Of a DNA stretch of 64,000 nt, positions 54,975 through 57,443 are shown piece after piece; positions within the stretch are counted from its first letter, which is position 1, and each line of letters opens with the position of its first letter. A model generated the notes under the pieces. It was not told where the DNA came from. It ran no database searches and worked only from the letters and a program-made list of their open reading frames with translations. Source of the stretch: Squalus acanthias (Eukaryota). The DNA is taken from NCBI GenBank assembly GCA_030390025.1, contig JASTWF010000085.1:1116001-1180000 (forward strand), given 5' to 3'. The position numbers and the translations under genes were made by a program.

Positions 54975-57443
54975 CTCCAGTAATAATGATCACCGTACCC
55001 CAGTAATAATGATTGCTGTACCCCAGTAATAATGATCGCCGTACCCCAGTAATAATGATCGCCGTACCCCAGAAATAATGATCGCCGTACCCCGGTAATA
55101 ATGATCACCGTACCCCAATAATAATGATCGCTGTACCCCAGTAACAATGATCGCCGTACCCCAGTAATAATGATCGCTGTACCCCAGTAACAATGATCAC
55201 CGTACCCCTGTAATAATGATCGCCGTACCCCAGTAACAATGATCGCCGTACCCCAGTAATAATGATCACCGTACCCCAGTAATAATGATCACTGTACCCC
55301 AGTAATAATGATCGCCGTACCCCAGTAATAATGATCACCGTACCCCAGTAATAATGATCACTGTACCCCAGTAACAATGATCGCCGTACCCCAGTAATAA
55401 TGATCGCCGTACCCCGGTAATAATGATTGTCGTACCCCAGTAATAATGATCACTGTACCCCAGTAATAATGATCACCGTACCCCAGTAATAATGATCGCC
55501 GTACCCCGGTAATAATGATTGTCGTACCCCAGTAACAATGATCGCCGTACCCCAGTAATAATGATCGCCGTACCCCGGTAATAATGATTGTCGTACCCCA
55601 GTAATAATGATCACTGTACCCCAGTAATAATGATCACCGTACCCCAGTAATAATGATCGCCGTACCCCGGTAATAATGATTGTCGTACCCCAGTAATAAT
55701 GATCACTGTACCCCAGTAATAATGATCACCGTTCCCCAGTAATAATGATCGTCATACCCCAGTAATAATGATCTCCGTACCCCGGTAATAATGATAGCCG
55801 TACCCCAGTAATAATGATCACCGTACCCCAGTAATAATGAGCGCCGTACCCCAGTAATAATGATCGCCGTACCCCAGTAATAATGCTCACCGTACCCCAG
55901 TGATAATGATCGCCGTACCCCAGTAATAATGATCACCGTACCCTAGTAATAATGATCTCCGTACCCCAGTAATAATGATAGCCGTACCCCAGTAATAATG
56001 ATCACCGTACCCCAGTAATAATGAGCGCCGTACCCCAGTAATAATGATCGCCGTACCCCAGTAATAATGCTCACCGTACCCCAGTAATAATGATCGCCGT
56101 ACCCCGGTAATAATGATCACCGTACCCCGGTAATAATGATCACCGTACCCCAGTAATAACGATCACCGTACCCCAGTAATAATGATCGCCGTACCCCAGT
56201 AATAATGATCGCCGTACCCCAGTAATAATGATCACCGTACCCCAGTAATAATGATCACCGTATACCAGTAATAATGATCAGTGTACCCCGGTAATAATGA
56301 TTGTCGTACCCCAGTAATAATGATCACCGTACCCCAGTAATAATGATCGCCGTACCCCGGTAATAATGATTGTCGTACCCCAGTAATAATGATCACTGTA
56401 CCCCAGTAATAATGATCACCGTTCCCCAGTACTAATGATCGTCATACCCCAGTAATAATGATCGCCGTACCCCGGTAATACTGATCACCATACCCCAGTA
56501 ACAATGATCACCGTACCCCGGTAATAATGATCACCGTACCCCAGTAATAACGATCACCGTACCCCAGTAATAATGATCGCCGTACCCCAGTAATAATGAT
56601 CACCGTACCCCAGTAATAATGATCACCGTACCCCAGTAATAATGATCACCGTATACCAGTAATAATGATCAGTGTACCACAGTAATAATGATCACCGTAC
56701 CCCAGTAATAATGATCACCGTACCCCAGTAATAATGATCGCCGTACCCCAGTAATAATGATCGCCGTACCCCAGTAATAATGATCACCGTACCCCAGTAA
56801 TAATGATCACCGTATACCAGTAATAATGATCAGTGTACCACAGTAATAATGATCACCGTACCCCAGTAATAATGATCACCGTACCCCAGTAATAATGATC
56901 GCCGTACCCCAGTAATAATGATCGCCGTACCCCAGTAATAATGATCGCCGTACCCCAGTAATAATGATCACCGTACCCCAGTAATAATGATCGCCGTACC
57001 CCAGTAATAATGATCGCCGTACCCCAGTAATAATGATCACCGTACCCCGGTAATAATGATCACCGTACCCCAGTAATAATGATCACCGTACCCCAGTAAT
57101 AATGATCACCGTACCCCGGTAATAATGATCACCATACCCCAGTAATAATGATCGCCGTACCCCGGTAATAATGATCGCCGTACCCCAGTAATAATGATCA
57201 CCGTACCCCGGTAATAATGATCACCGTACCCCAGTAATAATGATCGCCGTACCCCAGTAATAATGATCACCGTACCCCAGTAATAATGATCGCCGTACCC
57301 CAGTAATAATGATCACCGTACCCCGGTAATAATGATCACCGTACCCCAGTAATAATGATCACCGTACCCCAGTAATAATGATCACCGTACCCCAGTAATA
57401 ATGATCACCGTACCCCAGTAATAATGATCACCGTACCCCAGTA
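54975..57443. repeat. 23-bp minisatellite (cagtaataatgatcaccgtaccc)n overlapping the WA alpha2 exon end
   Basis: About 107 units; the last unit coincides with the exon 3' boundary. Confidence 0.97.

Follow-up and report, generated by a model that had tools for sequence, protein, structure and literature searches.

A 23-bp minisatellite spans the alpha2 splice donor of an MHC W-category WA gene in Squalus acanthias, and assembled RNA-type contigs join the first donor copy to the next exon

In Squalus acanthias, the alpha2 exon of an MHC W-category WA gene has its splice donor inside the first unit of a minisatellite of about 107 units. Contigs assembled from RNA-type runs use only the first of its donors, and the 106 later copies are probably silent passengers that have grown by slippage and unequal exchange. 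The window analyzed here is the whole stretch of 64,000 nucleotides from position 1,116,001 to 1,180,000 of contig JASTWF010000085.1 (assembly GCA_030390025.1), and all positions below are those of the window unless another locus is named. A sequence-only reading of this window had proposed that the alpha2 donor was amplified in tandem and that its copies could tune membrane versus secreted or decay-prone forms by competing for U1 snRNP.

The host of the array is an intact WA gene of the Nds3L type, encoded on the minus strand. The coding part of exon 1 (signal peptide; 63444..63528) was located by tblastn with P0001-P0004 and an open frame, its donor being predicted from sequence, and exon 2 (alpha1; 60960..61211) shows 43-61% identity to shark orthologues and has its 3' end fixed by RNA contigs. 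Exon 3 (alpha2, Ig C1-set; 57437..57715) is 279 nt long with phase 1 at both ends, matches the Pfam C1-set with an E value of 7.5e-18 and has ends defined by RNA contigs in all four runs, and the coding part of exon 4 (connecting peptide, transmembrane region, tail and stop; 53004..53173) was delimited by the acceptor seen in RNA contigs and by its frame. The four exons give an open 261-aa chain with the class II alpha layout, i.e. signal, alpha1, Ig C1 alpha2 and one transmembrane region. The protein encoded by exon 3 is 66-67% identical to four shark proteins, and P0004 (66% identity) differs by eye at two alpha2 residues from the WA Nds3L row of Dataset S2 (PMC8713811). When aligned with the beta2m-like and class II alpha exons of this genome, alpha2 contains Y8, F37, F57 and W61, in agreement with the W61, F/Y57, Y8 and F/L37 that WA shares with beta2-microglobulin as described in PMC8713811. 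The same source describes L55 for WA generally; position 55 is Y in the gene studied here and F both in the Nds3L row of that paper and in the two aligned orthologues, and therefore L is not fixed in the Nds3L subgroup. The Pfam match, the identity to orthologues, the W-category residues and the open four-exon frame confirmed the earlier assignment of the exon to WA alpha2.

Three more WA-type and two WB-type exons were found within ~200 kb. With subgroup labels assigned by eye against the Dataset S2 rows (PMC8713811), the order along G000:C3718:1173-1375 kb is WA Nds3L (-), WB Nds5L-like (-), WA DS5-like (+), WA DS5-like (-), WB DS3-like (+) and WA DS10-like (-). WA and WB genes have been described as clustered head-to-head pairs (PMC8713811); a head-to-head WB is absent from the 80 kb upstream of the window's WA gene, and the sole WB exon in this interval is on the same strand as WA, ~70 kb away. 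Within the WA gene itself, ~125 nt located just before exon 2 (61244-61370) appear by eye to be repeated 1.5 kb off in intron 1 (62731-62850). A neighboring gene at 17976-31090, also on the minus strand, contains a transmembrane exon (donor 30972) and exons with tyrosine motifs (donor 28648; the last one at ~18400-18076). The order of its motifs presumably resembles that of the lymphocyte adaptor SIT1, and a Pfam search of this gene was blank.

The minisatellite occupies 54975..57443. TRF reported a period of 23, 107.6 copies, 91% matches and 1% indels at 54970-57443, and a walk along the minus strand from 57443 to 54975 passed through 107 full head-to-tail 23-bp units in register, followed by a partial one, which upholds the copy number of ~107 proposed from the letters of the sequence. 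The 107 units comprise 29 distinct sequences, the commonest being that of the first unit, which spans the exon/intron border: its first seven bases close exon 3 (codons for Y-W and one further base, phase 1), and the other 16 belong to the intron; this composition, also proposed previously, is correct because donor 57437 was fixed by RNA contigs. The authentic donor, GGG/GTACGG, occupies 57431..57439 on the minus strand and is cut between 57437 and 57436, as deduced from exon 3 contigs that end at 57437 and continue into exon 4 in all four RNA-type runs. It is followed at 23-nt spacing (57414, 57391 and so on to 54999) by 106 pseudo-donors (54993..57416, minus strand), 101 of which keep GT and 78 of which are the same as the first donor from -3 to +6. 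In the complete set of units, GT at +1/+2 is retained in 102/107 and lost in five, and positions -3 to +6 are the same as in the first unit in 79/107 and changed in 28, so that the description of the donors as near-identical applies to roughly three in four copies. A TGA codon in the frame of exon 3 lies inside the second unit (57405..57407, minus strand). The same intron harbors a second low-complexity repeat (53312..54370, detected by TRF) that ends ~140 nt before the exon 4 acceptor, and the far end of the array adjoins a fragment at 54870-54975 that we take to resemble a shark SINE. Unit positions +8 to +16 weakly resemble exon positions -17 to -8, the likeness amounting to four bases; a longer exonic part could once have been duplicated, and the likeness may also be due to chance.

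The uniqueness of the unit was evident from pattern searches of the 3.7-Gb genome. All 20 matches to a two-unit 31-base pattern, and all 43 matches to a looser two-unit pattern, fell in the WA array, and the reversed-pattern controls gave 0 matches in both cases. The array is not a product of chance, and its full unit is restricted to a single locus in the genome.

An assembly artefact, with the array missing or far shorter in real DNA, is extremely improbable. It is true that no contig spans the array or, in this organism, the joint between exon and array (~55% of run X9, another sample of this organism, was covered), and the copy count of 107 thus comes from the assembly only. However, besides its 29 unit variants, the array contains duplicated blocks of 5-7 units, and units farther away diverge more from the first one (rho 0.36, p 1e-4; the copies are not independent). 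The divergence gradient and the duplicated blocks are those of ordinary minisatellite turnover, which argues against an artefact. Moreover, unit contigs were present in the four DNA-type runs compared at 80% likeness, and tandem unit joints were found in run X9 and in organism E. Run X9 also contains a variant of the unit for which this array gave 0 matches; contig depth gives no allele length, and the array is likely to vary in length between individuals as a VNTR.

Contigs running from exon into unit were observed in two other organisms, here called D and E, which also speaks against an artefact. Of the four DNA-type runs, those of D and E had contigs over this joint, the other two being organism C and run X9. 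Organism D yielded a 689-nt contig over exon 3 with 46 differences in 347 bases, and organism E a 414-nt contig with 30 differences in 345 bases. The listed changes alter at least 19 (D) and at least 15 (E) of the 92 exon residues without introducing a stop, and 19 of these changes are common to both organisms. Both contigs run to 57414, i.e. 30 bases into the array, where a 31-base word graph should break off on reaching a tandem repeat; of the 40 difference rows listed, none falls within these first 30 array bases. Unit contigs in D and E were hundreds of times deeper than the exon, a depth that is not a copy number and into which low-likeness contigs of other repeats are mixed. Because exons that are 9-13% different run nevertheless into the same unit, the array probably predates the divergence from D and E. 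The presence of a little-changed unit in organisms with such exon divergence could reflect selection, against the view of the array as a passenger; on its own, however, a slowly changing repeat consensus is no demonstration of selection. A synonymous difference from the assembly at 57492 (an Asp codon) was observed in the four RNA-type runs and in organisms D and E, and might be an allele marker.

The donor in use was analyzed with contigs from four runs of one study bearing the same organism label, whose RNA type is guessed, none of them being recorded as RNA. When the contigs of these runs were compared over 57391-57800, each run provided one contig that covers exactly 57437-57715 and continues into exon 4 and exon 2. 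These exon 3-spanning contigs are 513-1385 nt long, with depths of 23.3, 3.9, 14 and 19.9. None of the 13 contigs from the four RNA-type runs joined a later unit to exon 4, and none read from exon 3 through into the array. At the level of contigs from this one study, therefore, the first and most upstream donor is the one mainly used in 4/4 runs, and its position at 57437 is as had been predicted. Comparison of the junction at 57437 with those of later donors had been suggested as a check, and exclusive use of the first donor regardless of array length as an outcome that would speak against competition; the contigs, with the first donor only in all four runs, come near to that outcome, although minor or decay-prone forms could be missed. 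Contig assemblies of this type drop words seen fewer than twice. Rare variants are thus lost, and at depths of 14-23 forms below about a tenth could be invisible, with decay hiding still more of any minor form. In run X5 an unspliced intron-2 contig (depth 7.9) was found alongside the unbroken spliced contig, which indicates that an unbroken main contig is compatible with side branches. Eight short repeat-unit contigs were present in two of the four runs (X5 and X7); they fit low-level pre-mRNA or DNA background, and transcripts from far donors could be another source.

The products expected from later donors were derived from the frame. As proposed by the sequence-only reading, use of the next copy, 23 nt away, shifts the frame: donor 2 (57414) would lead to a frameshifted chain of 240 aa that terminates in exon 4. 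The read-through stop was also found where it had been placed, at 57407-57405, with the correction that donor 2 lies before it and escapes it. All donors from the third onward would produce the same 215-aa product ended by this TGA, as would intron retention, so that later donors that are in frame give no extended protein. Two contigs extend 537 nt past the exon 4 junction, and their unspliced end would lie at 52637, inside a 33-bp array at 52522-52659, which suggests that exon 4 is likely the last exon and runs to at least 52637. With exon 4 as the likely last exon, the stop would lie more than 50 nt before the junction from donor 5 onward, so that under the 50-nt rule nonsense-mediated decay would be expected for these donors alone, and the 215-aa chain from donors 3 and 4 would likely escape decay.

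These predictions bear on the proposal that the later donors compete for U1 snRNP, their share depending on array length, and thereby yield transmembrane-less or decay-prone forms that tune WA at the surface. The 240-aa and 215-aa products can be read off the sequence, U1 pairing is as good at later donors as at the first one, repeat-unit contigs exist in two of the four RNA-type runs, and nearby pseudo-donors are used in CBS, 6-16 and ABCA7 (PMC1557585, PMC5954066). In contrast, no later-donor junction was seen in the contigs of the four runs and the donor positions of later copies are not preserved, and according to the published descriptions one-unit retention in ABCA7 is unaffected by array length (PMC5954066) and the F7 donors do not compete (PMC1557585). 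Salamander WA needed WB in order to mature and appear at the surface (PMC8713811), and hence a lone anchor-less alpha chain would not obviously be secreted. Taken together, these observations do not support tuning of membrane and secreted forms by U1 competition, which we regard as unlikely.

The lack of preservation was apparent from the variation among units. Nine variant alleles occur over the nine donor positions and 15 over the other 14 unit positions, and 110 of the 132 differences among units are transitions. The pseudo-donors therefore show no sign of preservation, the donor positions varying as freely as the rest of the unit. A U1 pairing energy of -7.0 kcal/mol was calculated for 40/107 units, the first included, compared with -1.9 for the exon 2 donor, and this energy failed to separate the first donor from later ones. 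RNA structure masking the later donors was considered and rejected, since the six proximal units gave a z of -3.75 against base shuffles, yet a control made of six copies of a shuffled unit folded equally in 136/300 cases; local accessibility was the same at donors 1 and 2 (0.0016 each). DNA hairpins as drivers of the expansion were also discarded, the z values of -0.8 to -2.4 in four stretches being weak. Equal U1 pairing, together with folding no stronger than in the shuffled-unit control, suggests that the first donor is likely selected by where it lies and not by its sequence or structure.

The first donor, GTACGG, departs from the consensus, and the array might be kept as an intronic enhancer whose GGGG runs aid this donor. 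Runs of G enhance splicing via hnRNP H/F, and the array has 101 runs of GGGG over its 2469 nt. Among 24 other C1 exons, most end in G/GTAAG or a similar consensus donor, and the unit persists in other organisms, both in agreement with such a role. Nevertheless, U1 pairing of the first donor (-7.0) is not weak beside that of the spliced exon 2 donor (-1.9), and the same G-rich core makes arrays where no exon is recognized, and an enhancer of this kind appears quite improbable.

The nearest WA paralogue lies at a distance of 200 kb; its exon ends identically, with a consensus GTAAGA donor and no array. A 14-base core is common to arrays on three other contigs (24/34 matches), and a 13-base core variant occurs in arrays on four more contigs among the 100 of 313 matches listed, so that the array family is larger than the part sampled. 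At least seven other arrays share the core, with periods of 19-33 bp and differing sequence outside it. The WA array could have been copied in from this dispersed family by way of the short match where the exon ends, and an earlier consensus donor would then have been lost. Such a history, which would concern the origin only, is consistent with the core on three contigs and its variant on four more, and with the consensus donor of the paralogue. However, units elsewhere differ from the WA unit in period and in sequence outside the core, the full unit is restricted to the WA array in this genome, and the seven exonic bases match the conserved Y-W codons of orthologues; a copied-in origin seems rather unlikely.

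Some of the related arrays also lie at exon ends. On contig C10 an array of the same core (19-20 bp, ~41 copies; L041:3388-4395, minus strand; G000:C10, ~113.4154-113.4164 Mb) spans a donor, starting four bases before that of an unrelated 173-nt exon of an uncharacterized gene conserved in catsharks, rays and skates; the exon end and the next exon were fixed by homologues with 67-73% identity. On C17 a 23-bp array of ~20 kb and some 900 copies (L042, L045 and L050; G000:C17, ~28.019-28.040 Mb) begins at the end of a candidate 68-nt exon, for which a Pfam search was blank and the neighboring frame gave no support. The array on C18 starts 49 nt behind the likely donor of a myosin-15-like gene and not across it, and no exon was recognizable by eye at the arrays on C2, C6 and C12. 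Among seven core-sharing arrays, therefore, one lies across a donor (C10) and one 49 nt behind a likely donor (C18).

As a control, 24 of 47 other C1-exon matches were inspected, many of them paralogues (L003, L004, L007, L021, L027, L028, L034, L040). No array lay across the donor in any of the 24, and in 8/24 an array started within 220 nt of the match end. In the window, an array begins no more than 150 nt from three of the four other donors, compared with 5.5% of non-repeat positions; these minisatellites (27603-28648, 30223-30972 and 62984-63444) start 25-150 nt behind their donors. The three donors of the myosin-15-like gene (L044:3212-7157) all have an array behind them, one having been found through its array, and the counts of arrays behind donors represent a small, non-independent sample. 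The absence from the 24 control exons, together with the C10 and WA cases, suggests that donor-spanning arrays are uncommon but recurrent in this genome. The share of DNA made up of minisatellites is 32% in the window and 34% in the adjoining 80 kb, and small shark chromosomes and chromosome ends have been reported to be rich in tandem repeats (10.1101/2022.10.17.512540).

We favor an explanation in which the WA donor would by chance have resembled a repeat-prone core (GGGGTACRGTG), the seed of many arrays in this genome, and in which the array would have grown intron-ward from the donor because expansion toward the exon would be removed by selection. By analogy with human F7 intron 7, the spliceosome would take the first copy, since only this copy follows exon 3 at normal exon length and is transcribed first. 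Rare use of a later copy would yield transmembrane-less products that are likely lost or harmless, and the array could thus be tolerated and persist. A more ambitious scenario holds that shark genomes repeatedly grow donor-adjacent minisatellites and that the WA array, likely with more than 100 copies, is kept across species with a tenth of difference in their exons, its G-runs and spare donors setting the amount of membrane WA and its length acting as a heritable dial for an old and little understood class of MHC; we give this scenario little credence.

The choice of one donor over about a hundred near-identical ones placed 23 bases apart is a large natural case of a known oddity, and it suggests that the first-donor rule of mammals holds in cartilaginous fish and at large copy number. 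The array should be useful as a test case for 5' splice-site choice, and it calls for caution when genes are predicted or short reads mapped at shark W-category genes. An effect of its length on WA expression would raise its importance, since W-category MHC is poorly understood in function and few regulatory VNTRs would be expected to be conserved from one species to another. Two features deserve attention: the array appears to be old, and arrays in this genome seem to cluster behind donors.

No published account of the WA array was found; the words "repeat", "splic" and "minisatellite" have 0 occurrences in the main text of PMC8713811, whose SI Appendix, with the gene structures, may mention the array. 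A first unit lying across an exon/intron border has been described for F7, CBS, 6-16, LMNB2 and PDGF (PMC1557585). In CBS intron 13, 6-16 intron 2, LMNB2 and PDGF intron 4 the donor is reiterated 10-25 times, and CBS and the interferon-inducible 6-16 gene also use the next two donors, whereas LMNB2 and PDGF use the first one only (summarized in PMC1557585); the WA contigs resemble LMNB2 and PDGF in this respect, and not CBS and 6-16. The human ABCA7 intron 18 VNTR has a 25-bp donor-bearing unit and an allele of 9711 bp (PMC5954066), and 107 copies are thus no record. The WA array shares with it a short donor-carrying unit, a long array and a frame shift upon use of the next unit. In ABCA7, however, splicing does occur at the next donor, and both exon 19 skipping and expression vary with array length, one-unit retention staying unchanged (PMC5954066), in contrast to the WA contigs, which show the first donor only. 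In human F7 intron 7, the most thoroughly studied human case, the unit is 37 bp long and present in 5-9 copies, only the first of the identical donors is used, and even strengthened later donors fail to compete with it (PMC1557585). As in F7, the first unit of the WA array spans the border, identical donors follow and the most upstream one alone was seen in use; it differs from F7 in belonging to an immune gene of a shark, in its 107 copies spaced 23 nt apart, in the in-frame stop of the second unit and in being apparently shared between species. The WA array is therefore likely an example of the already known donor-spanning intronic minisatellites, and F7-like as far as tested.
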